In this document: piece after piece, positions 2,976 to 61,507 of the stretch
Position numbering within the stretch: position 1 is the stretch's first letter
Layout of the letters: each line of letters begins with the position of its first letter
DNA from: Candidatus Omnitrophota bacterium
GTDB lineage: Bacteria > Omnitrophota > Gorgyraeia > JAZDFF01
Assembly: GCA_043808095.1 (NCBI GenBank)
Contig: JAZDFF010000001.1
Coordinates: 1,628-65,627, forward strand
Reading direction: 5' to 3'
DNA: 64,000 nucleotides
Translations under genes and position numbers: made by a program
Notes under the pieces: model-generated
Told to the model about the DNA's origin: nothing
Databases searched by the model: none
Seen by the model: the letters and a program-made list of their open reading frames with translations, nothing else

Positions 2976-3004
2976 TTGACAAAATAGTTAAGTTATGTTA
3001 TACT
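2976..3004 (+). promoter_or_regulatory. sigma70-type promoter candidate (TTGACA-17 nt-TATACT) upstream of the hspR-like/heat-shock region
   Basis: Exact consensus hexamers with a 17-nt spacer were read directly from the sequence. Confidence 0.4.
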
Positions 3005-3169
3005 TCAAATGAAACCCAAACTTACGGAACACAGTGACTGTAAGTTTGCTGGCTGAATTTTGCAACACTAATTTTACTGATAGTACGAATTTCTAAAAAG
3101 ACTAGTTTTTTAAAATCAAACTCATATATTTACTCCTGCATTTTTAGTAAAATTAGTGTTGGATTCAAT

Positions 3170-3226
3170 TCGCCCCTGCTGTTTCGCTTTGTGAAGTGAA
3201 GCGAAACAAAGCGACAGGGGCTCATT
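3170..3226. promoter_or_regulatory. Long imperfect inverted repeat immediately upstream of the hspR-like gene (candidate operator or structured leader)
   Basis: gcccctgctgtttcgcttt...aagcgaaacaaagcgacaggggc gives a nested stem-loop of ~20 bp ending 14 nt before the gene start. Confidence 0.4.
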
Positions 3227-3239
3227 ACAGGTGACTAAG

Positions 3240-3503
3240 ATGCCTTTATTTGATATCCATATCAGCCCGGATGAGCCGGTATATGTAATAAGCGTGGTGA
3301 GTAAATTGGTGGATTTGCCGGCGTGGACCTTACGGCAGCTGGACAAGTGTGGAATTGTTTGTCCTAAGAGGATTGGGAAAAAGAGCAGGCTTTATTCTTT
3401 AAAGGATGTCAAAAAATTGGAGTACGTGCATTATCTTATGGAAGAAAGACGCGTAAACATTAGCGGCATCAGAATAATTTTGGAAATGGAAGTTAAGGAA
3501 TAA
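3240..3503 (+). CDS. hspR: MerR-family heat-shock regulator, HspR-like
   Basis: PVYVISVVSKLVDLPAWTLRQLDKCGIVCPKRIGKKSRLYSLKDVKKLEYV...GIRIILEME closely follows the HspR HTH consensus. The gene sits directly upstream of CIRCE-hrcA-grpE-dnaK-dnaJ. Confidence 0.7.
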   Translation: MPLFDIHISPDEPVYVISVVSKLVDLPAWTLRQLDKCGIVCPKRIGKKSRLYSLKDVKKLEYVHYLMEERRVNISGIRIILEMEVKE

Positions 3504-3520: not shown

Positions 3521-3547
3521 TTAGCGCTCTCATGATGTGAGTGCTAA
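3521..3547. promoter_or_regulatory. CIRCE operator (HrcA binding site)
   Basis: TTAGCGCTC-N9-GAGTGCTAA matches the CIRCE consensus TTAGCACTC-N9-GAGTGCTAA with one mismatch. Confidence 0.8.
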
Positions 3548-3881: not shown

Positions 3882-4619
3882 ATGGTAAGAATAGTTGATT
3901 ATGACCAAAGAAGAAGGCTGGTCCTTGCCGCAACTATAAATAGGTATATTAAAGAGGCTAATCCTATTTCTTCTCTAGACATTGCCAAGGATTTTGACCT
4001 GAGCCCGGCTACCATAAGGAATATCTTCGCGGATTTGGAAGAAGCCGGTTACTTAACCCATCCTTATACCTCAGGAGGCAGGATTCCTACCGGTAAAGGC
4101 TACCGTTATTACGTGGATTTTCTTATTTCTCAGATGGAGCTCTTAGAAGGCGAGAAATATAAGATTCTTCGCCAATATCAGGATCAGGCTAATCAATTAG
4201 AGGAGATTCTGGATAAGACCTCGGATTTGATTGCCCAGGTTACGCATTATGCCGGCATCGCCTCATTTTTAGACAGGCAGGACAAATTTTCTTATAGAGG
4301 TATAAGTTTCGTCCTAAATCAGCCGGAGTTTCAAGATTTCCGGCGGGTACGTTTTTTAATCAACCTCATTGAAGATAAGCAACAGTTGCTTAATATCATT
4401 AACCGGGATTTTTCACAGAAGACCAGAGTTTATATCGGTCAGGAATTGGACTATCCTGAGATGGAAAGTTATTCTCTGGTGGTTTCAAGTTTTGGCTCAA
4501 AAAAAAGGCCCTTGGGAAGACTGGCGGTCTTAGGCCCGATGCGCATGGAATATAATCATATCATTCCGGCGCTGGAATATATTTCAAACGCGCTCTCGGA
4601 TGTAATCGAGGATTTTTAA
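3882..4619 (+). CDS. hrcA: Heat-inducible transcription repressor HrcA (short form, 245 aa)
   Basis: N-terminal winged helix (ISSLDIAKDFDLSPATIRNIFADLEEAGYLTHPYTSGGRIPTGKGYRYYVD) and C-terminal LGPMRMEY motif. It is about 100 aa shorter than typical HrcA. Confidence 0.85.
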   Translation: MVRIVDYDQRRRLVLAATINRYIKEANPISSLDIAKDFDLSPATIRNIFADLEEAGYLTHPYTSGGRIPTGKGYRYYVDFLISQMELLEGEKYKILRQYQDQANQLEEILDKTSDLIAQVTHYAGIASFLDRQDKFSYRGISFVLNQPEFQDFRRVRFLINLIEDKQQLLNIINRDFSQKTRVYIGQELDYPEMESYSLVVSSFGSKKRPLGRLAVLGPMRMEYNHIIPALEYISNALSDVIEDF

Positions 4620-9270: not shown

Positions 9271-9390
9271 AGGTATGATTAAAACACAGATTAGCACAGA
9301 TGTCTTCGGAAATATCTGTGCTAATCTGTTTCTTTTATCTGTGCCCATCTGTGAATATGCAATCCTTATTTATCTTACATAGCATTATAG

Positions 9391-10656: not shown

Positions 10657-10797
10657 AGCACAGATTAACTAGTTTGAAATAAAGTAGCGAGTAATCCTTC
10701 GACATTGCTCAGGACACTTCGAAAGACACTGAGCTAAGTTGAAGTGCTAGTAGAGAGTAGAGAGAATTAAATTACAATATACAAAGCACAAATTATC

Positions 10798-10822
10798 CCC
10801 TGCAATCTGAAAGATTGCGGGG
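10798..10822 (+). terminator. Strong hairpin (CCCCGCAATC-loop-GATTGCGGGG) downstream of the DUF1015 gene
   Basis: Perfect 10-bp stem; the tract that follows is only weakly T-rich. Confidence 0.3.
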
Positions 10823-10962
10823 ATTTAATCCTGGAAATTCTACGAATTTCTCAGGACAAACAATATACAATGCCGAATACTGAAATTATGAACAAAATGT
10901 TTTGGTTATTGCCTGCCTGCCGGCAGACAGGGAAACCAGAAAAAATAAAAATCTGGTTACTG

Positions 10963-11036
10963 TCCCGAATGTTGTTACTATATTAGTTATTCTTCGGGAT
11001 CCCGAAGCGATACCATAGTAGTTACTACATTCGGGA
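10963..11036. repeat. MITE-like palindromic element: TIR TCCCGAATG...CATTCGGGA with central CTTCGGGATCCCGAAG
   Basis: One of five copies (10963, 29818 composite, 30846, 37328, 45256); the whole unit can fold as a hairpin. Confidence 0.6.
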
Positions 11037-11077
11037 TAAACTGTTTTCTGGTTACTCCCGAGCGAAGCGAGGGGAAC

Positions 11078-20034: not shown

Positions 20035-20212
20035 CAAATACGGATAGAGAATAAATTTTCTAGAAAACTACCAAGGGATATGAGCTAAGGCAGGGTTTAG
20101 GTTAAGTAATATAGGCTGTCACGAAATTCATTCCAACCTATGATTACAGTGATTTTAAATAAGATTCCAGTGATTATCTCGATGACATGCTTAATCGCCG
20201 TAATCTATTTTC

Positions 20213-20302
20213 TTCCCGCTTTACGGGATCCCGCTGGATATTTTCTATTGCGCGGGATAATCACCGTAATCAAGGGCGGCACTTTTGTGACGCCCTATTA
20301 AG
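20213..20302 (+). promoter_or_regulatory. Conserved ~90-nt leader element (copy 1), upstream of ugd
   Basis: ~90% identical to 52594-52687; contains the palindrome GCGGGATCCCGC and an AGGGCG...CGCCCT hairpin. Confidence 0.45.
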
Positions 20303-21770: not shown

Positions 21771-22217
21771 ATGATTGATGGAGTCAAGATAAAAGAATTA
21801 AAGATAATACCTGATGAGCGCGGCAGGCTTATGGAGATACTTAGGGTAGACGACCCTATCTTTAAAAAATTTGGCCAGGTCTATATGACTACTGCCAAAC
21901 CCGGCGTCGTTAAGGCCTGGCATTACCACAAATTACAGATCGATAATTTCACTTGCGTTAATGGACGTATTCGCCTTGTCCTCTACGATGCCAGAGCAGA
22001 TTCTCCTACTTACGGCGAAATCAACGAATTTACCTTAAGCCTTAATGAGCCTAAGCTTATCCAGATACCGCCTAATGTGTATCACGGTTTTAAAGGTATA
22101 AGCGACATCGAGGCCGTAGTTATTAATACGGTAACTCATCCTTATAACAGGCAGTCTCCTGATGAGTACAGGGTTGACGCATTTGATAATACAATAGATT
22201 ATGACTGGAGGAAATAA
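21771..22217 (+). CDS. RmlC-like cupin, dTDP-4-dehydrorhamnose 3,5-epimerase / sugar isomerase family
   Basis: MIDGVKIKELKIIPDERGRLMEI...GQVYMTTAKPGVVKAWHYH fits the RmlC-like fold. Start moved to ATG 21771; the track's 21738 start lies inside an upstream palindrome. Confidence 0.6.
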   Translation: MIDGVKIKELKIIPDERGRLMEILRVDDPIFKKFGQVYMTTAKPGVVKAWHYHKLQIDNFTCVNGRIRLVLYDARADSPTYGEINEFTLSLNEPKLIQIPPNVYHGFKGISDIEAVVINTVTHPYNRQSPDEYRVDAFDNTIDYDWRK

Positions 22218-22467
22218 ATGAAGCCCAAACTTACGGAGCAATAGCGAACGTAAGTTTGCTGGCTGAATTTACCCCCACACCAATTGGCTTATAATTTTAG
22301 GCAGTATTAACAATTGGTGTGGGGGTCCAATTCGCTCGCCACTAATTCTTTGGCGAGCGTCCGCCAAAGTTTTAGTGGAGGACGCATTAACAAAGATGCT
22401 GTTCATAAGAGATTGACTTATGTCGTCATTCTGACTCCATAAGTCAAGTGTTCATTGGAGGAAATAA

Positions 22468-29741: not shown

Positions 29742-29810
29742 TGCAATTTTTAAAAAGAAAAATTGCATTGATTACAGCGATTTTTAAAAAAGATTACAGT
29801 GATTAAAGAA

Positions 29811-30150
29811 ATGATTATCCCGAATGATGTTATTCTTTGTAGTGTCTCTTCGGGATCCCGTTCCGAATATAGCAAATGCTTTTGTATAGTTTCGGGATCC
29901 CGACGATTCGCTTCTATGAATACCTTCATTCGGGAAAGAATAACCTAAAAAGTTACTACATTCGGGACAGTGATAGAACCATATTTAATGTCCAATATCC
30001 AATAAATACCAATAATACCAATGAATGTCCAATTGCCAATTGGATAGTTGGGATTTGGGATTTTATTGGCACTTCGACTTTGCTCAGTGCCAATGGTGAG
30101 CATAGTCGAACCATTGGAGTTTGGTAGTTATTGGTAAATATTGGGATTTA
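29811..30150. repeat. Left direct repeat flanking the pilin/PilX-like locus: a composite of two MITE-like units plus a CCAAT/ATTGG-word palindrome
   Basis: 29811-29860 is identical to 37321-37380, and 29977-30062 is identical to 37430-37524. The left copy carries an extra 46-bp insert (30062-30108) from the 'acttcgactttgctcag' repeat family. Confidence 0.7.
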
Positions 30151-30791: not shown

Positions 30792-30845
30792 TAATATAAA
30801 TGATAAATTTCCAATATCCAATAATACCAATGAATGTCCAATTTC

Positions 30846-30921
30846 TCCCGAATACAGTTACCCAAAGAAGTTATGCTTCGGGATCCCGAAGTTATACTTC
30901 GCAGAGATACTACATTCGGGA
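30846..30921. repeat. MITE-like palindromic element (copy)
   Basis: TCCCGAATA...GCTTCGGGATCCCGAAGT...CATTCGGGA. Confidence 0.6.
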
Positions 30922-31014
30922 CAATGACCAATTAGATAATTGAGATTTGGGATTTCATTGGGATTTGGTAGTTATTGGTAATTATTGGGATTTAAGTGTA
31001 AAGGGGTTGTCCAA

Positions 31015-37295: not shown

Positions 37296-37320
37296 AAAAA
37301 TGATTCCAGCGATTAAGAAG

Positions 37321-37570
37321 ATGATTATCCCGAATGATGTTATTCTTTGTAGTGTCTCTTCGGGATCCCGATGTAATTCTTAAGAAGTTACTACATTCGG
37401 GACAGCGATAAAAGATACGATTACAGCAAGAGAACCATATTTAATATCCAATGTCCAATATCCAATAAATACCAATAATACCAATGAATGTCCAATTGCC
37501 AATTGGATAGTTGGGATTTGGAGAATTTATTGGAGTTTGGTATTTATTGGTAATTATTGGGATTTAAAGA
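37321..37570. repeat. Right direct repeat flanking the pilin/PilX-like locus
   Basis: See the 29811-30150 entry; ends in the ...GGGATTTAAAGAGT-ATG junction that also precedes paralog 1. Confidence 0.7.
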
Positions 37571-37650: not shown

Positions 37651-37712
37651 TTGTTCTCTCCGAGAATGAATAAATTGACAGTTCGTCAGATTATCTTTAT
37701 AATAAACCCATT

Positions 37713-42631: not shown

Positions 42632-43007
42632 GCTTCATAACTAAAATAAAAAATAAATTATAGGGCGTCATAAAAATTCCGCCCTTGATTGCAGAGGTTA
42701 CAAAATCTGATTATGCGGATTTCCGCCTTTGGCGAAAAATATTCCGAAGAAACAATCTTTGTAATCATTAGGCTAAAACGATACTTCGACTTTGTCCTGC
42801 TTCGACAGGCTCAGTATTCGCCCTGAGCGAGCGAAATCCCTCGACTGCGCTCGGGATGGTTCGAGGGGTGGTGAGCCCTTCGATTACGCTCAGGGCAAAT
42901 GGTGAGCAAAGTCGAACCAGAGCAAGTCGAACCACGAGTCGAAAGGCTCAGTATTCGTCCTGAGTGAAATCGAAGGACGAATTTTATGACAGCCTAAATA
43001 AATTATT

Positions 43008-43364: not shown

Positions 43365-43504
43365 TAAGCACATCCCGATGTAACGTCGGGATAAGTGCGA
43401 ATTTAACCCCCGTCGCTTTGCTTCGCAAAGCGAAGCAGCGGGGGTAAGTTCGGACAAATAACTTATGTCGCTCTACAGGCTCCATAAGTTATGTCCTCAC
43501 TTAT

Positions 43505-45255: not shown

Positions 45256-45329
45256 TCCCGAATGAAGCAATTGATTGTGTTTAGCTTCGGGATCCCGAAG
45301 TGATTCTTAAGAAGTCACTACATTCGGGA
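45256..45329. repeat. MITE-like palindromic element (copy), upstream of recJ
   Basis: TCCCGAATG...CTTCGGGATCCCGAAG...CATTCGGGA. Confidence 0.6.
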
Positions 45330-45345
45330 TAATTCGTGAGAATTA

Positions 45346-47280: not shown

Positions 47281-47622
47281 ATTGACTCCTTTAATGAATA
47301 ATATCACAGATGATTACAGATCTACCTTTAAATTTCAGATTTTCGCAGATGGGTACAGATAAGTTAATCAGTGTCCATCTTGTAGTTTTTCCCGCTAAGC
47401 GGGATCCCGCTGGAATCTTTTATTTTGGTACGGGATAATCTGTGCTAATCTGTGGATAAATATAACTAAGTTCGGATTTTATTTGAGTATACTTGAAAAC
47501 AGATTTTTGTCAAGGTAAAATGAGTGAGGGCATAAGTTATGTCGCCAAAGTCAATAAACAGTTCCATAACTTATGTGCTTTATTGGAAAAGGGCGGTATA
47601 ATCGAATTATAGGAGAGCTCAA

Positions 47623-49130: not shown

Positions 49131-52082
49131 ATGAAAACCACTATCCTAACCGGCTTGAACAAAGAACAGATCGAAGCGGTTACTCATAAAGAAGGTCCGC
49201 TTTTAATTATTGCCGGAGCCGGGACAGGAAAGACCGCAGTAATCACCCGCAGGATCGCCTGGCTTCTCGCCGAAAAATTAGCCCGGCCAGAAGAGATCCT
49301 TGCCCTTACCTTTACCGATAAGGCAGCCCAGGAGATGGAAGAACGGGTAGATATCCTGGTGCCTTATGGCCTCACAGATATCTGGATTTCAACATTCCAT
49401 GCCTTTGGCGATAGAATCTTACGGGAAAACGCATTAGATATCGGGCTTCCCCCGGATTTTCGCGTGCTCACCCGGCCGCAGGCCTCAGTATTTTTGCGCG
49501 AACACCTCTTTGAATTGCCCTTAAAGCATTATCGGCCTTTAAGCGATCCCACCAGGTTTATCGATGCCATGATTAATTTATTCAGCCGCGCCAAAGACGA
49601 AGACGTCTCAAGTGATGAATACATTGAATATACCAGTAAGTTAGAGAGAGAAATAAACCCGGATGATCCCGAACAAAAAGAGGAACTCACCCGCCAGGTT
49701 GAGCTTGCCTCCTGCTATGCCAAATTCCAGGAACTCCTTAATAAATACGGCATGGTTGATTTCGGCAACCAGTTTTATCTTGCCTTAAGGTTATTCAGAG
49801 AACATCCTTCAATCTTAGCCCGTTACCAAAGACAATTCAAATTCGTACTGGTGGATGAATTCCAGGATACAAATTACGCCCAGTTTGAACTCTTAAAATT
49901 ACTCGCTAAAAATAATAATATCACCGTAGTAAGCGATGACGACCAGTCCATTTACCGCTTCCGGGGTGCAGCTTACAGCAATATCCTGCAGTTTATGAAC
50001 AATTATCCTTCGACCAAAAAGATTACCCTGATTAAAAACTACCGGTCGACTCAGGTAATCCTGGATACTGCCTACAGGCTGATTCAGCATAATAACCCTG
50101 AGCGTTTTGAAGTAAAGGCCGGGATTAATAAACATCTTGTAGGGACGAGCAAAAAAGGCAAGGCAGTCAAGCATCTTTATTTTGACCATGTCTCTAATGA
50201 GGCAGATAGTATTGCCAAGATAATCCAGGAAAAAGTTCACCCCGTTAGAGGCTCTCGTTTAAAACATGCTGTCTCTAATGGGGTCAAGACCAAGAAGTTT
50301 AATTATCAGGACTTTGCCATCTTAGTCCGTTCCAATTCAGATGCTGAAGCCTTCCTGCAGGCCCTAAACATGTATGAGATCCCCTGGCGTTTTAGCGGCA
50401 ACCAGGGTTTATATTCCAGGGGCGAAATTAGATTATGCATAGGTTTTTTAAGGTTGATGGCTAATGTCCATGATTCGACCAGCCTCTACTATCTGGCAAG
50501 TTCCGATATTTATAAAGTCCCTCTAAAAGACTTAAGCCTGTGCACTAATTATAGCCGCAGATTTAATCAGAGTTTGTTTAGCGTTTTAGAGAACCTTGAT
50601 AAGGTCGAGAATCTGGAAAAGATGCCCAAAGATTCGAAGGCCGCGATCGGGAAGCTGGTCGTAGATATCAATAAATTCCTGGAGATTTCCCGCGAGCATA
50701 CCACAGGAAGGTTACTTTATTTATTCCTGACCGAGACCGGATGTATTAAGCGCCTGATTAAGGAGCTGTCACTGGTAAACGAAGAGAAAGTGCAGAATAT
50801 TGCCCGTTTTTTTCAGATTGTCCGGGATTTTGAGAATATTGCCAAGGAAGACCGGGTAGTCTATTTTGTCGATTATATTGATATGCTTATCGAGGCAGGA
50901 GATGACCCGGCAACGGCGCAGGCGGATCTGGATGCCCCGGCAGTAAATGTGATGACCGTGCATAAGGCAAAGGGACTGGAGTTTGAGGTGGTCTTTATTG
51001 TGAGTTTAGTCGGCGGCCGTTTTCCCTGGCCGCATCGCCGCCAGGGCCTGGAACTGTCCGATGCCCTTATAAAGGATATCCTCCCCAGCGGGGATTTTCA
51101 CCTGCAGGAAGAAAGAAGGCTCTTTTATGTAGCCATGACCAGGGCCAAGAAGGAGCTCTATCTGACTTCATCAAGAGACTACGGCGGCAGCCAACCCCGC
51201 AGGGTCAGTCAATTTGTGATGGAGGCCCTGGGTTTAAAAAAGTCGCCGGATATATCTTTCAGGAGTTCTGCCCAGGAATATATCCAGAAGTTTAAGCCCC
51301 CTGCAAAAAGAAAGTCCGGAAAAGTTACGATAGAAAAAGATGAGATAATCAGCCTTAGTTATTATCAGGTCGATGATTATTTGACCTGTCCTTTAAAATA
51401 TAAGTACGTGCATATCCTGCGCGTTCCGATTATAGCGCATCATACAGTTATCTACGGCAAGGCTATACACGATGCTATCTCACGATATTTCGAGTTAAGG
51501 CTCGCCGGAAAGGAAATCGATAAAGATAGGCTTTTTGGGATTTTTGAGGCCTCTTTTAAACCCGAAGGATTTTTATCGCGCCAGCATTACGAGGAAAGGC
51601 TCGCCAAGGCCAGGCAATTCCTGGATAGGTTCCTTAGAGAACAGGAGGCAAGCGGAAAATTACCCCTTTTTGTGGAAAAAGAATTTTCTTTTCTGTATGG
51701 TAAAGACCGCATAGTCGGTCGTTGGGATGCTATTTATGCCGAGAGAGATTTTATCACCATACTTGATTTTAAATCCTCAGATGTGAGTGTTCAGAAGGAT
51801 GCCGACAAAAGGACCAGGGAAAGCATCCAGCTGGATATCTATGCCTTAGCCTATAAACAGGTCTTTGGCCGGCTTCCGGATGAAGTGGCCTTGTATTTTC
51901 TGGAATCCGGCATAATCGGAAGGGCTGAAAAGAAAGTCAAGAATTTAGAGAAGATTGAAGAGAAGATAAAGATAGCATCCCAGGGCATACGCCAGGCTGA
52001 ATTTCCCGCCAGGCCCGTGTATCTGGCCTGTAATTGGTGCGCCTATAACCAGATCTGCCCTTATGCAAAGCATAAGGGCTAA
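49131..52082 (+). CDS. UvrD/PcrA-type helicase fused to a C-terminal PD-(D/E)XK, Cas4-like Fe-S nuclease domain
   Basis: Walker A IIAGAGTGKT, UvrD motifs (VDEFQDTN, NYRST...), four Cys in the C-terminus (C-x...CNWC...C) and D/E-K nuclease residues. Confidence 0.8.
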   Translation: MKTTILTGLNKEQIEAVTHKEGPLLIIAGAGTGKTAVITRRIAWLLAEKLARPEEILALTFTDKAAQEMEERVDILVPYGLTDIWISTFHAFGDRILRENALDIGLPPDFRVLTRPQASVFLREHLFELPLKHYRPLSDPTRFIDAMINLFSRAKDEDVSSDEYIEYTSKLEREINPDDPEQKEELTRQVELASCYAKFQELLNKYGMVDFGNQFYLALRLFREHPSILARYQRQFKFVLVDEFQDTNYAQFELLKLLAKNNNITVVSDDDQSIYRFRGAAYSNILQFMNNYPSTKKITLIKNYRSTQVILDTAYRLIQHNNPERFEVKAGINKHLVGTSKKGKAVKHLYFDHVSNEADSIAKIIQEKVHPVRGSRLKHAVSNGVKTKKFNYQDFAILVRSNSDAEAFLQALNMYEIPWRFSGNQGLYSRGEIRLCIGFLRLMANVHDSTSLYYLASSDIYKVPLKDLSLCTNYSRRFNQSLFSVLENLDKVENLEKMPKDSKAAIGKLVVDINKFLEISREHTTGRLLYLFLTETGCIKRLIKELSLVNEEKVQNIARFFQIVRDFENIAKEDRVVYFVDYIDMLIEAGDDPATAQADLDAPAVNVMTVHKAKGLEFEVVFIVSLVGGRFPWPHRRQGLELSDALIKDILPSGDFHLQEERRLFYVAMTRAKKELYLTSSRDYGGSQPRRVSQFVMEALGLKKSPDISFRSSAQEYIQKFKPPAKRKSGKVTIEKDEIISLSYYQVDDYLTCPLKYKYVHILRVPIIAHHTVIYGKAIHDAISRYFELRLAGKEIDKDRLFGIFEASFKPEGFLSRQHYEERLAKARQFLDRFLREQEASGKLPLFVEKEFSFLYGKDRIVGRWDAIYAERDFITILDFKSSDVSVQKDADKRTRESIQLDIYALAYKQVFGRLPDEVALYFLESGIIGRAEKKVKNLEKIEEKIKIASQGIRQAEFPARPVYLACNWCAYNQICPYAKHKG

Positions 52083-52320
52083 TTTATACTCCGCGGCCTG
52101 AAAACCGCGCCCTTTAGGGCGCGGATAAGATGTGGCCGCTTGAGTATTCCGCCCAAGGAACCCCGGGCTTTAGCCCGGGTGGGCTCCATTTTTTGAGAGT
52201 TAAAACATTCTGGCTTTCAAGAGGTTAGTGAAATTTTTTCAAATGAAGCCCAGACTTATGGAGCCTGCTTGACACCAAACAGGCGATTGCGAACATAAGT
52301 TGTGTGCTCATTAAAATACC

Positions 52321-52349
52321 TTGACAAATGTCGAAAAAAATAATATACT
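52321..52349 (+). promoter_or_regulatory. Perfect sigma70 promoter (TTGACA-17 nt-TATACT) driving a short structured transcript
   Basis: Exact consensus hexamers with a 17-nt spacer, read directly from the sequence. Confidence 0.45.
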
Positions 52350-52355
52350 TAAATA

Positions 52356-52465
52356 AATACTTTTTAAAAGTTTTTTGTGGCTTAGGCGACCAAACTTGGC
52401 CACGGATTCCGAGTTTCGGAATAAGGGAGGTTGCTTCTAAAAGATAGAAGCAACCTTTTTTATTT
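52356..52465 (+). ncRNA. Candidate ~110-nt small RNA ending in an intrinsic terminator
   Basis: Predicted +1 ~7 nt after the -10. Hairpins GUGGC...GCCAC and UUCCG-AGUUU-CGGAA, an exposed AAGGGAGG, then GGUUGCUUCU-loop-AGAAGCAACC followed by UUUUUUAUU. Confidence 0.35.
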
Positions 52466-52593
52466 AGGTAAGCGAGGAAGCGCTTTCTTTTTAAAACAGC
52501 CCTTCACAAAACTAGTTCAGGGCTGTTGATTGCAGTGATTTCAAAAAAGATTACAGCGATTTATCGTCGAGCATTAATCTTTGTAATCTGATT

Positions 52594-52687
52594 TTCCCGC
52601 TTTGCGGGATCCCGCTGGAAATTTTCTATTGTGCGGGATAATCTCTGTAATCAAGGGCGAAACGATTTTTGTGAAGCCCTATTTAAG
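52594..52687 (+). promoter_or_regulatory. Conserved ~90-nt leader element (copy 2) upstream of the 1956-aa surface protein
   Basis: ~90% identical to 20213-20302, with the same GCGGGATCCCGC palindrome and AGGGC...GCCCT hairpin just before the RBS. Confidence 0.45.
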
Positions 52688-52700
52688 GGAGGATAAAAAG

Positions 52701-55700
52701 ATGATGGGAATAAAAAAATTAATAAGTGTATTAATTTTAGGTTGCGTATTAATATTATTGAATAATCCTTCCCTTTTAGCAGAAGAGGGTCAATGGAAGT
52801 CCTTGGATGAAGGAATTCCTTCGCTAACTGCTCCCCAGGCTTCAGTACTTAAGTCTACTGATTCAACTGTCCATTTAAGGATACAGGTCCCTGGTTTTGA
52901 AGTTAAGCAAAATGAAGAACAGGGCGTAGTCTATCAACAAATCCGTCTTCCTCAGGCAAGCTTGCTTCCTGAAATAGGCAAACCGATGCTTCCCCGGCTT
53001 ATCAGGATTATCGCCGTGCCTAAAGAATGTAATCTTTCCGATATCAAGTTAGAATTTTCTCCTACCAAAATCCAGACCTTGGAAAACTACTTAGTTTATC
53101 CTCTGCCTGATTTAGACGATAAAAAAGATATCTTTGTTAAAGACGAACTTTTCTATGAAAAAGACGTTTTTTATCCCGAACAGGTGGTAAAGGTTGAATC
53201 TATAGGCCTGATGCGCGACCAGAAAATTCTTAAGATTCAAATCTGTCCTATACAATATAATCCTAAGACAAAACAACTCAAGGTATATAAAGACCTGATA
53301 ATCAAGGTAAACTTTCCTTCTGGTATAGTGAGTTCATCTACGGGAGTAGGACCTCTTGAACATGTGGCTAACCTGGCTCTATTAAATTATGAATCCAGGC
53401 CTCAAGAAGAGCCAGAAGAAGGCGGTAAATCAGGGAATGTTATCTATCCCACAAATTTGAAAACCGGTACAAACAATGCTGATTATATTATCATTGCTGC
53501 TCCTCTGCTTTGGCAGGACAGGGATACCAACGGATTGGTTACTTTTGCTAACCATCGCGCTACCTATAATAACTGGAATGTGGCAGTGGTAAATAGAGAT
53601 GATATCTATAATCAATTTAGCGGCACCACTGATGATGACAAGATTAAGGCCTTTATTACCTATGCCTATAATAATGTCGCTAACCATTGGCATGCGCCTC
53701 GTATGGGCGATGACCATACTGGATTTGTGCTTTTAATGGGAGACGCGCGTTCAGCTGCCGGTACAGGCCATCTACCCACACATATCTCTATTCTTGTTGA
53801 CCCTATTAAATATGAACGTATTGCTACTGACCACTGGTATGCCTGTATAAATGATGATGACGGCAGCGGTATGGTTGATGATAATGACCGCATGGCTGAT
53901 CTTTTTATTGGCCGGTTTTGCACAGGAGGCGATGACTGGGCCCAGAGAGTTCTGGATAAGACCCGCTTCTTTGATATTGCCGGAATTCCTAGCCCCAATT
54001 GGAAAGGAAAGATTGGCCTTTGGTGCGGCTATGGAAGCCAAGATGCCAACAGGATCAGCGAGCTTAGAGATACAATCTATCCTCATATTGAACAGCTGGC
54101 CGGCACTAATTCTTTTTTTGAGGTAAGCGATAAGGAATTTAGTACAGATCATACTAATTTAAATGATTTTAAGGATGACTTTAAGAACTATTTTAATTTA
54201 GGCAGAGGGATTGTTATTGACAATAGTCATGGTGACTACAATCTGTGGCAGTGGTCCAAAAATTTGTCTACGTTTGTAAACTTCGCTACTGATGATGTAG
54301 ACACTCTGAATAATGGTAGCAAAACTCCTCTGGTTCTGAGTTTTTCTTGTAGCACAGCGAGGTTTGACTATATCGGCAAAGGAGGTCAAGGCGTTGATCC
54401 CAATTTTGAGTCTTTAGCTGAAAGGTTTACCGAGATAGCTAACAATAAAGGTGCGGTAGCCTTTTGGGGGGCAACACGCGATACTAATTACCATGGAGAT
54501 TTTGAGTATACTGATACTATGATTCCGGCAGTCTTAGAATACGGCCTAAGCAATCTGGGTCAGGCTATTCTTTATACCAAACTCACCTGCTCTACAGTTT
54601 ATAATGGGGATATCATATTTAATCTGGTGGGTGATCCGGGTCTAGGGCTCTATGGCACTGTCCCAGGTTTTATCACTGACCTGCAGATTACCAGTGATAA
54701 TATCCAGACCGCTTCGGTTGGTTCTGATATTAGAATAACCGCTAAAGTAGAGAATATGACTGTTGTAGCAGCAACAAACGTCTGGGTGCGCTTCTATGAC
54801 GGCGACCCTACCAATGGTGGCATTCAGATAGGCTCTGACCAATTAATTAGCTCAATTCCCAGGTTTGGCAGTCAGACCGCAGAGGTCCTCTGGATTAATC
54901 CCTCCCAGACAGCGCATACCATATATGTGGTGGTTGATCCTGATAATACCATCACTGAATTTAATGAGGAAAATAATAAGGCCTCTACGGTAGTTCTCCT
55001 GGGATTTTCAGTCACTCCGGGTTATTATATTGACTCTTCGGCAATAGTAGCGGATGTAAATAATGACGGTGATAAGGAGATAATCGTAGGCTGTAATGAC
55101 TACAAAATTTATGTTTGGCAATCAAACGCTCAAGCATTACCCGGCTGGCCTATTTCAACAGGTGGTTCTGTGGAATCTTCTCCTGCTGTAGCTGATCTAG
55201 ACGGAGATGGAGATTTGGAGATAATTTTCAGTAGTAATAATGGTTATGTCTATGCCTGGCACCATAATGATGGACCTGATGCTGGCGATGAAGCAGATCC
55301 GGTTGCGGGTTGGCCAATTTCTATAGGCGGTCAAGTCCGTGCCACTCCAGTTGTTTTTGACTTAGACAATGATGGTGATTTAGAGATTATTGCTGCCTCA
55401 ACCAATGGCAAGGTCTATGCCTGGCATCACAATGGCCAGCCTTTTGCTTCTTGGCCAGGAGGTTATTTACAGGCAGCAGGAGCAATTTATTCTTCACCCG
55501 CAGTGGGTGATATTGATGGACAAGGCAGTGTAGAGATAGTAGTAGGCAGCGACGATGGCAAGGTCTATGCCTGGCATGCTCATAATGGCCAGGCCTTGAC
55601 TAATTGGCCAGTTGTAACCAACCCAACCTTACCCATACGTTCTTCACCCAGTTTAGCGGATTTAGACCGCGACGGTTTTCTCGATGTGGTAGTTGGTTCC

Positions 55701-58571
55701 ACCAATGGTAGGATGTACGCCTTTAAGTATGACGGCAGCCCTGTTACCGGTTGGTCAGGCGGAGTAGCAACCGCTGGTGCAATATATTCTTCACCCTCCA
55801 TCGCGGATATTAATAAAGACGGTGAATTAGAGGTAGTGGTGGGTTCTTATGATAACAAGGTCTATGCCTTTAAGTATGATGGAAGTCTTCTTTCTGGTAA
55901 TTGGCCAGTAACTACTGGCAATGATATCTATTCCTCGCCCTCATTATCTGACGTAAATGGTGATGGTAATATTGATGTGGTAGTGGGTTCTTATGACCAG
56001 CATCTTTATGTCTTGGATAAAAATGGCGGAGTTGTTGGTTCTCCTTTTACAACCTCAGGCAGAATTAGGTCGTCACCTGCAATCGTAGATATGGATGGTG
56101 ATGAACGGCCTGAGATATTAGTGGGTTCTTATGAGCAGTTGCATGTGTTTAGGGCAGGCGGCAGTGCAGTTGAACCCGAAGATATGCCTTGGTCGCAATT
56201 CCGCAAAGAGCCAAACAGGAAGGCAGTCTATAGTCGGCTCGCCCAAAGCCAGATTACCAACAGCCCAATGGATTATGCCACAATTCAAAAGGCCATATAC
56301 GCAGCTCAACCCGAAGAAACCATCTTAGTGCCAGAAGGTACATATTATGAAAATATCTCTTTCAAAAGCAAATCTATTACTTTAAAGGGTACAGAGGGTC
56401 CAGGAGGAGTGAAGAAGAGCATCTTAGATGGAGGTGGTGTTGGTTCGGTAGTTTATATGAGTTATAGCGAAGATTATCAGACAGGACCCTTTAATCCCGT
56501 CCTAGAAGGATTTAAGATTACCCATGGCTCAGGATATATGGGAGATTTGGGAGGGGGGGTTCTTATAAGTGGTAACTATCCACCTAATTCAAGACCGCAG
56601 GTCCTCCACAATTATATAACAGAAAACGAAGCTGATTATGGTGGTGGTATTGACCTTGGGGGGAGTTCGGCAATTATTAAACAAAATATTATCAGCAACA
56701 ACACAGCTCATATCGCTGGAGCAGCAATTTGTGCTATTGGGTATAGTATTAGCAACGAATCGCCGCTCATTACCAATAATGTAATCTATGCCAATACCGC
56801 GCCTGATTATAATCCTGATGAATGGGTTAGTGGTGGCATTATTTTTATCACCCAATCTGGAATCGACCCCGTAGATACACCGACATATTATCCTATAATT
56901 GCTAATAATACCATTACCTTAAATGTGGAGTGGTATGTTGGTAGAGGTCCAGCCGTGGTTATTAATAATCCTTTCCCCAACTGGGTGGATGCCAAGTTAG
57001 TCAATAATATCATTGTGAACAATTCCAAGGGGATTTGTTATTATTCCTCAAATCAGCCTTCAGGAGAACCTTCTCCTGAATCAATTGCCTATAATGATGT
57101 GTATAACAACACCGGCGGAAATTATGTGGGGCTTTCTGACAGAACTGGCATACAAGGCAATATCTCTGTTGAACCTAAGTTTAGAAACGGACTCTACTTA
57201 AGAGATCATATCTCTCCTTGTATTGATGCTGGTATTCCTGATCCCGATGGTAACCTAAATAATAATGAGGGCCAGCTTTGGGATTGGTCCCTTGAGCCTG
57301 ATTTTTCTGCTGGCCATATCAATATGGGCGCCTTTGGCAATACTTCCATAGCAGAACTTAGCTGCCATGTTCCTTATTTTCAGGACGATTCTTCCTGGGG
57401 TTATCCTATTAATAGTTATTATTGGGAGTGGCCGGTAGATCAGCCCGTTAATCTCACTGTTCATGCCGTTGATTGTGATGGCGATACGCTTAATATTAAT
57501 TTCGGGTTTTTGCCTCCAGGCCTATCGGCAACAGTTACACCGGGTAATCCTGCTTACCTTGTTATTACAGGCACACCCAATGTTACGGGAACTTATTCCA
57601 CCACATTTATTGTCCAGGATAACAGCCAGTATTTATTCTCTAAGACAGTGCCAGTCACCTTTAACATATTTAAATATGAGCCTGCGTCGCCATCATGTCC
57701 TTATTTATATCTGTGGAATGGCTCTGATTATGTCTTTGAGAATGACCTCTTCCCATCTGGAAATCCCAAGGAATACACTGATTATTATCTCTTGATGAAG
57801 GAATTAATACCAAAGGATGAGGTCTATTCTTTAAAGATAAAGGAGGAATTAGAGGAGACTTCTCATATAGACAAGGTATCGCTTTTACAGATAGACCATC
57901 CTGAAGGAGTAAAGATTGCTCCTACCCTGGAAGGTAAATTATATACCTATAAAGAACCTCTTACAGCTGCCGCAAATGTCGTCAATAGCCAGGGCGAGGA
58001 TATTACCGAGTTAATTTCTACCGGCGCTGATAATAAAGAGTATTTTGGCAGGCAGGGAGAGGAGATTATGCTTAGGTTTGCGAAAAACGGCCTAAGAGAT
58101 GAAACCAGACTTATCCTGAGTTCTGACCTGCCTAGGCCAAAACCCAATTATGCCAAATCTATCCATCTTCAGTTCAAGGACAAAAAAGGCCAGTGGCAGA
58201 ATCTCGTAGTCCTGCATCCCCATGAATACTGGGATATCTGGGCAGTGGATTTATCACCTTACCTTGAGGATTTAGGCAAAGATGAGGATTTGGAGATTAA
58301 GATCTTCTTTACTCAAGACCACAAGTTAGACTTCGTGGCCTTAGATACATCGCAACAAGCCCCCATTGTCGTAACCGAGCTTCCGCTTTTAAAGGCTACG
58401 CACTCTAAAGATAACGATATACGCTTAAAGTTGGAAACCTCTGATAATGACTACACCCGGACAATCAAAGGAGACTACATTGATTTAGAATTCCCATATC
58501 TAAGTAAGCCTACTCAAAAAAGAAGCTTTATCTTTGTCAGTGAGGGTTGGTATAGGCAAAACAAGAAATAG
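52701..58571 (+). CDS. Giant secreted multidomain protein: C25 (gingipain)-like cysteine peptidase + FG-GAP/VCBS beta-propeller + right-handed parallel beta-helix + C-terminal domain
   Basis: Signal peptide MMGIKKLISVLILGCVLILL; RBS AAGGGAGG. The candidate catalytic dyad (NSHGD...SFSCSTARFDY) resembles the Kgp/Rgp C-x-TAQFDY region. There are at least six FG-GAP-like repeats (DLDGDGDLEII...YVYAWHHN). Beta-helix repeats run from about 56280 to 57300. Confidence 0.75.
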   Translation: MMGIKKLISVLILGCVLILLNNPSLLAEEGQWKSLDEGIPSLTAPQASVLKSTDSTVHLRIQVPGFEVKQNEEQGVVYQQIRLPQASLLPEIGKPMLPRLIRIIAVPKECNLSDIKLEFSPTKIQTLENYLVYPLPDLDDKKDIFVKDELFYEKDVFYPEQVVKVESIGLMRDQKILKIQICPIQYNPKTKQLKVYKDLIIKVNFPSGIVSSSTGVGPLEHVANLALLNYESRPQEEPEEGGKSGNVIYPTNLKTGTNNADYIIIAAPLLWQDRDTNGLVTFANHRATYNNWNVAVVNRDDIYNQFSGTTDDDKIKAFITYAYNNVANHWHAPRMGDDHTGFVLLMGDARSAAGTGHLPTHISILVDPIKYERIATDHWYACINDDDGSGMVDDNDRMADLFIGRFCTGGDDWAQRVLDKTRFFDIAGIPSPNWKGKIGLWCGYGSQDANRISELRDTIYPHIEQLAGTNSFFEVSDKEFSTDHTNLNDFKDDFKNYFNLGRGIVIDNSHGDYNLWQWSKNLSTFVNFATDDVDTLNNGSKTPLVLSFSCSTARFDYIGKGGQGVDPNFESLAERFTEIANNKGAVAFWGATRDTNYHGDFEYTDTMIPAVLEYGLSNLGQAILYTKLTCSTVYNGDIIFNLVGDPGLGLYGTVPGFITDLQITSDNIQTASVGSDIRITAKVENMTVVAATNVWVRFYDGDPTNGGIQIGSDQLISSIPRFGSQTAEVLWINPSQTAHTIYVVVDPDNTITEFNEENNKASTVVLLGFSVTPGYYIDSSAIVADVNNDGDKEIIVGCNDYKIYVWQSNAQALPGWPISTGGSVESSPAVADLDGDGDLEIIFSSNNGYVYAWHHNDGPDAGDEADPVAGWPISIGGQVRATPVVFDLDNDGDLEIIAASTNGKVYAWHHNGQPFASWPGGYLQAAGAIYSSPAVGDIDGQGSVEIVVGSDDGKVYAWHAHNGQALTNWPVVTNPTLPIRSSPSLADLDRDGFLDVVVGSTNGRMYAFKYDGSPVTGWSGGVATAGAIYSSPSIADINKDGELEVVVGSYDNKVYAFKYDGSLLSGNWPVTTGNDIYSSPSLSDVNGDGNIDVVVGSYDQHLYVLDKNGGVVGSPFTTSGRIRSSPAIVDMDGDERPEILVGSYEQLHVFRAGGSAVEPEDMPWSQFRKEPNRKAVYSRLAQSQITNSPMDYATIQKAIYAAQPEETILVPEGTYYENISFKSKSITLKGTEGPGGVKKSILDGGGVGSVVYMSYSEDYQTGPFNPVLEGFKITHGSGYMGDLGGGVLISGNYPPNSRPQVLHNYITENEADYGGGIDLGGSSAIIKQNIISNNTAHIAGAAICAIGYSISNESPLITNNVIYANTAPDYNPDEWVSGGIIFITQSGIDPVDTPTYYPIIANNTITLNVEWYVGRGPAVVINNPFPNWVDAKLVNNIIVNNSKGICYYSSNQPSGEPSPESIAYNDVYNNTGGNYVGLSDRTGIQGNISVEPKFRNGLYLRDHISPCIDAGIPDPDGNLNNNEGQLWDWSLEPDFSAGHINMGAFGNTSIAELSCHVPYFQDDSSWGYPINSYYWEWPVDQPVNLTVHAVDCDGDTLNINFGFLPPGLSATVTPGNPAYLVITGTPNVTGTYSTTFIVQDNSQYLFSKTVPVTFNIFKYEPASPSCPYLYLWNGSDYVFENDLFPSGNPKEYTDYYLLMKELIPKDEVYSLKIKEELEETSHIDKVSLLQIDHPEGVKIAPTLEGKLYTYKEPLTAAANVVNSQGEDITELISTGADNKEYFGRQGEEIMLRFAKNGLRDETRLILSSDLPRPKPNYAKSIHLQFKDKKGQWQNLVVLHPHEYWDIWAVDLSPYLEDLGKDEDLEIKIFFTQDHKLDFVALDTSQQAPIVVTELPLLKATHSKDNDIRLKLETSDNDYTRTIKGDYIDLEFPYLSKPTQKRSFIFVSEGWYRQNKK

Positions 58572-58902
58572 ATTCCGATACTTTTAACAGTGGATTTAAA
58601 TTAAATAATATACTAGGATATTATTCCTTAAGCGTAATTTACCTTCTGTTATCTGCAAGACGCCTGCTTTCTTATGTCCTCCGAGTGTCTTAATCCTTGA
58701 CTTTGCTTAGGATTAGGAGTATACTAATCAAATTGAAATCTAGACTTACGGAATGATAATGAACGTAAGTTTGTGATTGAATTTGACCCTTGACATCTTT
58801 GATGTCAAGGGTTTAATTCGCAGACGCCCCGAAATTTCGGGGCTACAATTTATGTCATTTACTTTCCATAAATTGTCTGCTCATTTAAAGGGGGTGATTT
58901 TT

Positions 58903-61272: not shown

Positions 61273-61507
61273 GTCTTGATATATGCTGGCGGCAAGAACC
61301 CAGCCAGTACAGGCCATTCTTATATTGCCTTGTCAAATAAAGATCACTTTGATTCCAGTGATTAAAATGTAGATTCCAGAGATTATTTTCCATCGGAAAC
61401 ACTGGAATCTTTTTGCTATAGGCTGGATCCCGCTTTGGTTAAAGGTGAAAGCGGGAAAAATCGCTGTAATCAATTTAGCAATCACTGTAATCATTCTTTA
61501 AAAATAA

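Follow-up and report, generated by a model that had tools for sequence, protein, structure and literature searches.

A candidate promoter-proximal leader with an intrinsic terminator upstream of a secreted C25 protease gene in an Omnitrophota genome

In a Candidatus Omnitrophota MAG, a 64-kb stretch of DNA (hereafter the window, the whole stretch that was analyzed) with a G+C content of about 41% carries all of its large ORFs on the forward strand. The 618-nt spacer between the stop codon of a helicase gene (52082) and the ATG of a large protease gene (52701) contains a promoter close to the consensus that is followed shortly by a terminator. This arrangement raises the question of what a unit that appears to stop transcription soon after starting it does in front of a protease gene, and the earlier note on this DNA had proposed either a regulatory small RNA or an attenuated leader.

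Promoter, terminator and predicted transcript

A scan for sigma-70-type promoters recovered the TTGACA-17-TATACT sequence that the earlier note had reported at 52321-52349. It matches the consensus at 11 of 12 positions, is the top match between 50.5 and 54 kb, and has both hexamers at a distance within the 16-18 nt that characterizes this promoter class. Matches of at least 11/12 were found at four sites on the forward strand of the 64 kb (2976, 3809, 37675 and 52321), compared to 0.8 ± 0.8 expected from dinucleotide shuffles, which is a 5-fold enrichment, and all four are intergenic and co-oriented with a gene 10-880 nt downstream. The A/T-rich flank upstream of the promoter (52308-52320) resembles the flank of the promoter at 2976, with 90% identity over 21 nt between its -35 flank and positions 2963-2983. 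Additionally, the rpsO promoter of the window (TTGACT-17-TATACT at 58697) aligns, along with the early leader, with TTGACT-17-TAGACT in the related locus L045, and the retention of this promoter indicates that the lineage uses a TTGACA/TATACT-type consensus. Between 52350 and 52700 no forward-strand promoter of at least 9/12 was found, the best site (8/12) lying inside repeat hairpins, and P52321 is therefore the sole recognizable promoter of the protease gene.

Other promoters of the window showed features of their own. The perfect 12/12 promoter TTGACA-17-TATAAT at 37675 ends only 10 nt before ATG 37713, which makes the transcript a candidate leaderless mRNA. The promoter regions at 2976-3240 and 58697-58900 (TTGACA/TTGACT-17-TATACT), which precede a gene for a MerR/HspR-like protein of 87 aa and rpsO, share a leader start of the form TCAAAT(T)GAAA..C.A.ACTTACGGAA-N-GTAAGTTTG...GAATTT. 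The rpsO version of this leader start is kept in L045 (3187-3311), and no spacer of the window is more highly structured than the rpsO leader (z about -12). An inverted repeat resembling CIRCE, TTAGCGCTC-N9-GAGTGCTAA, was observed at 3521-3547 upstream of hrcA (3882-4619) in a heat-shock cluster.

The earlier note had also placed a terminator with a GC-containing stem and a T-run about 100 nt behind the promoter, and this element, T1, was recovered as well. It was absent from a first automated terminator scan and was found by a stricter scan that demanded a perfect stem and at least six T in eight positions. The stricter scan returned two canonical terminators on the forward strand of the 64 kb, the second being at 9286-9329, 16 nt past a gene stop codon; intrinsic terminators at gene ends in this lineage are represented by that site and by positions 2810-2866 of locus L048. 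T1 has the G+C-containing stem, the loop of 3-8 nt and the immediate U-tract of an intrinsic terminator. Its stem pairs GGTTGCTTCT(A) at 52429-52439 with (T)AGAAGCAACC at 52445-52455, the full arms reading GGTTGCTTCTA and TAGAAGCAACC, and the T-run TTTTTTATTT occupies 52456-52465. The predicted dG is -15 to -19 kcal/mol, and further G-T and A-T pairs lengthen the stem into the T-run (arms 52420-52439 and 52445-52464). The stem begins 80 bases after the end of the -10 hexamer. A promoter and a terminator lying 40-250 nt apart were seen in none of 60 shuffles (expectation about 0.001), and the pairing is far beyond chance.

A strong promoter followed by a strong terminator, with no ORF in between, predicts a discrete transcript about 105 nt long on the same strand as the protease gene. 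Its start was set about 7 nt past the -10 hexamer and its 3' end was placed in the T-run. The predicted fold has an MFE of -42 kcal/mol and a z of -6.4, a value that comes almost wholly from the terminator because 52420-52465 alone gives -6.5; the 5' 64 nt give -1.4. The two internal hairpins claimed in the earlier note, P2 and P3, are indeed predicted, although their stability is barely beyond that of shuffled sequences (z -2.45 for 52374-52420). Structured spacers are common in this genome, and among 236 intergenic windows of 110 nt the candidate takes about sixth place, with the rpsO leader and several palindromes of repeats ranking higher. We agree that the RNA contains no plausible ORF. 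It has no AUG, its UUG and GUG frames have no Shine-Dalgarno (SD) sequence, and a 39-aa forward-strand ORF (52328-52447) starts within the promoter spacer, again with no SD. No small-protein family was found for this ORF with HMMER among 1.8 billion representatives, and its sole database match was to 16 residues of a repeat protein of 1544 aa (E 7e-5).

The RNA was further said to expose a sequence identical to the SD of the protease gene. The identity is exact (TAAGGGAGG at 52422-52430 and at 52684-52692), and the 8-mer AAGGGAGG occurs only twice in the 64 kb, in the leader copy and in the protease SD. The exposure did not hold up, the copy being paired with the U-tract CCUUUUUU (52454-52461) in both the MFE and the centroid structures. 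In the predicted fold of the full 365-nt leader, corresponding to the read-through transcript, the partner of the real SD is a pyrimidine tract, CUUUCUUU (52483-52490), in the weak second terminator-like hairpin. Across the window, GGAGG lies within 15 nt of the start in four of 44 genes, which makes the protease SD unusually strong.

Table 1. Coordinates of the features in and around the spacer (window positions).
Feature	Position	Strand	Description
UvrD/PD-(D/E)XK helicase-nuclease gene (upstream gene)	49131-52082	+	Product 100% identical to NCBI protein MFH1201308.1
Three G+C-rich hairpins	52057-52195	+	At and after the helicase stop codon; T-run behind the third only
Sigma-70-type promoter P52321	52321-52349	+	TTGACA 52321-52326, 17-nt spacer, TATACT 52344-52349
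Predicted primary transcript, ~105-110 nt	52356-52465	+	Inferred from promoter and terminator geometry
Predicted hairpin P2	52374-52406	+	UUUGUGGCU.../...GGCCACGGA; in MFE and centroid structures
Predicted hairpin P3	52408-52420	+	UUCCG AGU UCGGAA palindrome; 7 bp in nascent RNA
SD copy AAGGGAGG	52423-52430	+	Overlaps the foot of the T1 stem
Intrinsic terminator T1	52429-52465	+	11-bp perfect stem, 5 G-C pairs, loop AAAGA, TTTTTTATTT
Weak second terminator-like hairpin	52470-52495	+	AAGCG...CGCTT 5-bp stem, then TCTTTTTAAA
188-nt composite palindromic repeat (MITE/REP-like)	52496-52683	+	nhmmer E 4e-62
Protease SD AAGGGAGG, 8-nt spacer, ATG	52685-52703	+	
1956-aa secreted C25 (gingipain-family) peptidase gene	52701-58571	+	Pfam domains (see text)

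Genomic context and the repeat element

The giant protease that the earlier note had placed downstream was identified as a C25 peptidase on the basis of its Pfam domains (Peptidase_C25, 4e-48; Propeptide_C25, 4e-25; FG-GAP_3, 1e-45; CARDB also present), the FG-GAP repeats being of the beta-propeller type. Its gene is followed by rpsO, pnp and ftsK. On the upstream side, the hairpins at 52057-52195 probably mark the end of the helicase transcription unit. The nearest relatives of the helicase are found in L045 (73% identical, on a 3.3-kb contig) and in L046 and L047 (63% each). L046 and L047 carry helicase, rpsO, pnp and ftsK in that order, with a helicase-rpsO gap of 96-232 nt, and in L045 the rpsO promoter starts 22 nt past the helicase stop codon. 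Comparison of window positions 52083-58696 with L045 3165-3311, L046 5034-5128 and L047 12917-13147 shows about 6.6 kb of extra sequence in the window, bounded by a point just past the helicase stop and a point just before the rpsO promoter. Because the relatives run from the helicase straight into rpsO, this segment is a lineage-specific insertion that contains the protease gene along with the candidate RNA and the repeats.

A scan of GTDB genomes with the helicase returned 44 loci (best identity 58%), none with protease synteny or similarity to the spacer. The N-terminus of the protease, searched against 5.8 billion proteins, matched three distant homologs (25-33% identity); the protease was not recovered as its own match in this search, which returned no close homolog.

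Most of the distance between T1 and the protease gene is taken up by a 188-nt repeat element with terminal inverted 13-mers (GATTACAGYGATT), a centre (TTCCCGCTTTGCGGGATCCCGCTGGAAATTTTCTATTGTGCGGGATAATC) and two flanking outer hairpins. The window carries a second full copy at 20110-20298 and cores at 47307-47444 and 61347-61473, and partial copies were noted at 29767-29862 and 37300-37376. A metagenome scan for the element centre identified eight loci. Copies elsewhere include L048 2290-2478, L051 1330-1509, L049 5649-5759, L053 7367-7487, L054 5951-6079 and L046 7517-7643. The L048 copy is 87% identical to 52496-52683 and the L051 copy is 90% identical to the second window copy, whereas coding DNA of L053, a syntenic relative, reaches only 71-75% identity to the window. 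Overall, the family comprises copies of 130-190 nt with nested palindromes, and its copies share 80-90% identity across genomes in which gene identity is about 72%. One intergenic site occupied by a copy in L053 is empty in the window. The high identity of the copies and these differences in presence indicate that the element behaves like a mobile repeat of the MITE/REP type. The copies in L048 and L053 follow a TTGACA-17-TATCAT/CAAAAT promoter at a distance of 30-50 nt and are immediately succeeded by an SD and ATG, a position inside a 5' UTR. Promoter-like sites within the wA/L048 subfamily are no better than 8/12.

The family has no Rfam match and therefore looks like an undescribed MITE/REP-like element of Omnitrophota. 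It resembles the Correia, REP, BIME and MITE repeats in its size of 130-190 nt, terminal inverted repeats and nested palindromes, in its many copies confined to spacers and often to 5' UTRs, in its variable presence, and in being better conserved than coding DNA. The element at 52496-52683 differs from these repeats, which are co-transcribed with neighboring genes, in that its sequence is unrelated to the described families (no Rfam match) and that no transposase partner was identified.

Further repeats were observed across the window. The outer hairpins (AGGGCG..CGCCCT and TAGGCTG..CAGCCTA, with loops containing TCACAAAA or TTTTGTGA) occur at L048 1805-1870 and at window positions 52496-52527, 52655-52681 and 42660-42700, their stems showing compensatory differences between two subfamilies. 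They also occur as an adjacent pair with no core, so the core may have inserted into a smaller REP-like doublet. A second family consists of double hairpins (TCCCGAATG...TTCGGGATCCCGA...CATTCGGGA; 10990-11060, 29820-29900, 30840-30900, 37330-37400 and 45260-45330). A third hairpin family (ACATAACTTATG...CATAAGTTATGT) is found at 22216, 43440-43500 and 47540-47590, and in the spacer itself at 52241-52300 (ACTTATGG...CATAAGT). CCAAT-rich repeats lie at 29990-30110, 30800-30980 and 37440-37560. The spacers 22218-22467 and 10782-11040 have very strong predicted structure (z -10; MFE -53 and -40 kcal/mol) and are probably repeat palindromes.

Leader, independent RNA gene or remnant

We tentatively place first the reading in which the unit supplies the C25 protease gene with its promoter and with a promoter-proximal leader whose terminator is on by default. 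RNA polymerase would initiate at about 52356 and would stop by default at T1, releasing the RNA of about 105 nt, and only a read-through fraction would cross the inserted repeat to reach the SD and the ATG at 52701. In this way T1 would throttle or conditionally gate the output of a near-consensus promoter for a large secreted protease. We infer that both signals are functional in the organism, that the protease gene is fed by transcripts reading through T1, and that such read-through is under regulation. The unit lies on the protease strand, the helicase upstream has its own terminal hairpins, and promoter, leader and protease occur together in the one 6.6-kb segment. The gap between T1 and the ATG is 236 nt, and its length is accounted for by the insertion of the mobile repeat into the 5' UTR; with the repeat discounted, about 48 nt separate the end of T1 from the ATG, a geometry usual for attenuators. 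It is this geometry, together with the absence of any other recognizable promoter, that ranks the leader first. A non-sigma-70 promoter that escaped recognition may be present within the repeat element, and this counts against the leader reading. The two proposals of the earlier note are thus both compatible with the anatomy of the unit, and the context favors the leader, although positive evidence of regulation was not obtained for either.

Compared to the terminator-containing 5' leaders known from Term-seq in Firmicutes, the unit is alike in having a strong promoter, a short untranslated RNA and an intrinsic terminator, and in being co-oriented and upstream of the only gene it could serve. 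It is unlike them in showing no antiterminator helix, aptamer, protein-binding motif or conservation, and in that T1 is now split from the ATG by a 188-nt mobile element. No antiterminator fold was found among the nascent-RNA, 3'-arm-blocked and suboptimal folds, which counts against the leader. When the 3' arm of T1 was blocked, its 5' arm formed only a 5-bp hairpin (-23.3 vs -42 kcal/mol). An 8-bp candidate antiterminator with two G-U pairs, between the P2 loop (AGGCGACC) and GGUUGCUU, was noticed by eye and is unsupported statistically. The upstream hairpins are independent of T1 and not significantly stable, a further point against the leader reading, and a comparable leader was likewise not found upstream of the three distant C25 homologs. 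Of the features by which riboswitches and attenuators are recognized, neither a mutually exclusive antiterminator nor a conserved sensor, in the form of an aptamer family or covariation, was detected. Because no antiterminator helix was found and the 5' hairpins are weak, any control of read-through would more probably depend on a protein or on processive antitermination than on a metabolite riboswitch.

Rfam was searched, as the earlier note had suggested. The whole 64-kb window gave no match at the gathering score, and the spacer searched at E up to 10 gave only chance-level matches (PyrR, 26/54 bits; mir-1255; ctRNA_pT181). The PyrR binding site RF00515 was rejected (26 bits against a gathering score of 54; E 0.25 in 701 nt). 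Its positions 1-115 align to 52356-52464 and it shares a terminator hairpin, a poly-U stretch and an AGGGAGG-like purine tract with the unit; however, the score is carried by the terminator, and the gene downstream encodes a C25 protease rather than a pyr function. The preQ1-I, guanidine-II and fluoride riboswitches do not fit by eye and were not flagged by the permissive Rfam search. Homologs were also sought by sequence. A blastn-short search found no paralog of 52321-52465 in the window, other parts of the spacer matching repeats only, and a degenerate pattern of the RNA gave no matches in JGI metagenome contigs and none in viral contigs. A single-sequence covariance model (R1), run over the window and 21 related loci, found no homolog; its matches were the candidate itself, the candidate's palindromic terminator read on the reverse strand, and a terminator of L048 that is unrelated. 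These searches yielded no homologs that could be aligned for covariation. The earlier note had held that a lack of conservation in relatives would speak against the candidate. Such an absence was formally seen; however, the relatives do not have the locus at all, protease included, and the conservation test is therefore uninformative: empty, and not negative.

A very strong terminator that shows no evident means of bypass is equally compatible with a stand-alone RNA gene. The unit could then encode a trans-acting small RNA that acts by base-pairing or protein binding elsewhere, with the protease transcribed independently, which we consider possible but somewhat unlikely. The near-consensus promoter, the length of about 105 nt without an ORF, the strong U-tailed terminator with a weak second terminator behind it, and the failure to find an antiterminator in the candidate RNA all agree with an independent non-coding transcription unit, and the restriction of AAGGGAGG to this RNA and the protease SD hints at a link to the protease gene. 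Hfq-type intergenic small RNA genes are similar in length, in having no ORF, in the U-tailed terminal hairpin and in the independent promoter. They differ from the unit in that it shows no conserved seed, paralogs or predicted target and has a weak body: neither conservation nor target complementarity was found, the searches of the window, the 21 related loci and the JGI metagenome and viral contigs gave no paralog or homolog, and the part upstream of T1 is weakly structured and of low complexity. The protease start region ranked 37th of 45 genes in a crude duplex ranking, which is uninformative. Finally, this interpretation leaves the protease gene with no recognizable promoter.

The mosaic nature of the spacer suggests another origin, in which both signals work and have no regulatory role, the unit being debris in a patchwork spacer and the short RNA a by-product; the unit could have arisen, for instance, if a segment carrying a terminator inserted between a pre-existing promoter and the 5' UTR. 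We regard this as unlikely. The region as a whole is lineage-specific, and the spacer is a mosaic of repeats that includes the ACTTATGG hairpin (52241-52300), the element at 52496-52683 and the flank shared with 2963-2983. Moreover, the segment with the hairpins and the terminator is flanked by two direct copies of the 10-mer CTTTTTAAAA (52360-52369 and 52487-52496) in the manner of a target-site duplication, and removal of the flanked segment gives a promoter-to-element spacing like that of L048. However, by our own estimate about 0.3-0.5 A/T-rich repeats of ten nucleotides are expected by chance in 700 nt, and the flanked segment lacks terminal inverted repeats and any second copy. Selection should also act against a strong terminator that blocks the sole promoter of an intact 5.9-kb ORF, except where it is tolerated or of use.

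The SD copy allows a more specific proposal, that the unit is a lineage-specific regulatory RNA gained or evolved with the protease and working as an SD-mimic switch, which we consider improbable. If it were true, the SD copy and the real SD would vie for the tracts at 52453-52461 and 52483-52490, and this competition would couple termination or read-through to protease translation, a new type of switch absent from Rfam. It is speculation that the SD copy in the short RNA could compete for pyrimidine tracts, the sequence being of low complexity.

It is very improbable that the motifs arose by chance and that the region is not transcribed as a unit. Consensus matches alone are no proof, and the organism is uncultured; however, the 60 shuffles yielded no such promoter-terminator pair, every match of at least 11/12 is intergenic and faces a gene, and the rpsO promoter of like consensus is kept in L045. 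A small protein or type I toxin-antitoxin system is hardly credible, since the 39-aa forward ORF begins in the promoter spacer, has no SD and matches only 16 database residues, and the 30-aa reverse-strand ORF (52403-52311), although it is antisense to the RNA and encodes a hydrophobic tail, has neither an SD nor a promoter of at least 9/12 upstream, on which grounds the toxin was rejected.

Implications for Omnitrophota

The unit is a feature of an ordinary, familiar kind. It belongs to no curated RNA family and is, as a prediction from a single genome, unproven. Comparative data support the repeat family better than they support the candidate RNA, and the family may be the more reusable observation. 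In the Omnitrophota literature searched, there was no mention of non-coding RNA, intergenic repeats or C25 proteases.

Omnitrophota are thought to be largely host-dependent or predatory (PMC10066038). If real, the unit would count among the earliest regulatory RNA or attenuator candidates to be described in this uncultured phylum, and the gene under its control would encode a large secreted cysteine protease with a possible role in a host-dependent lifestyle.
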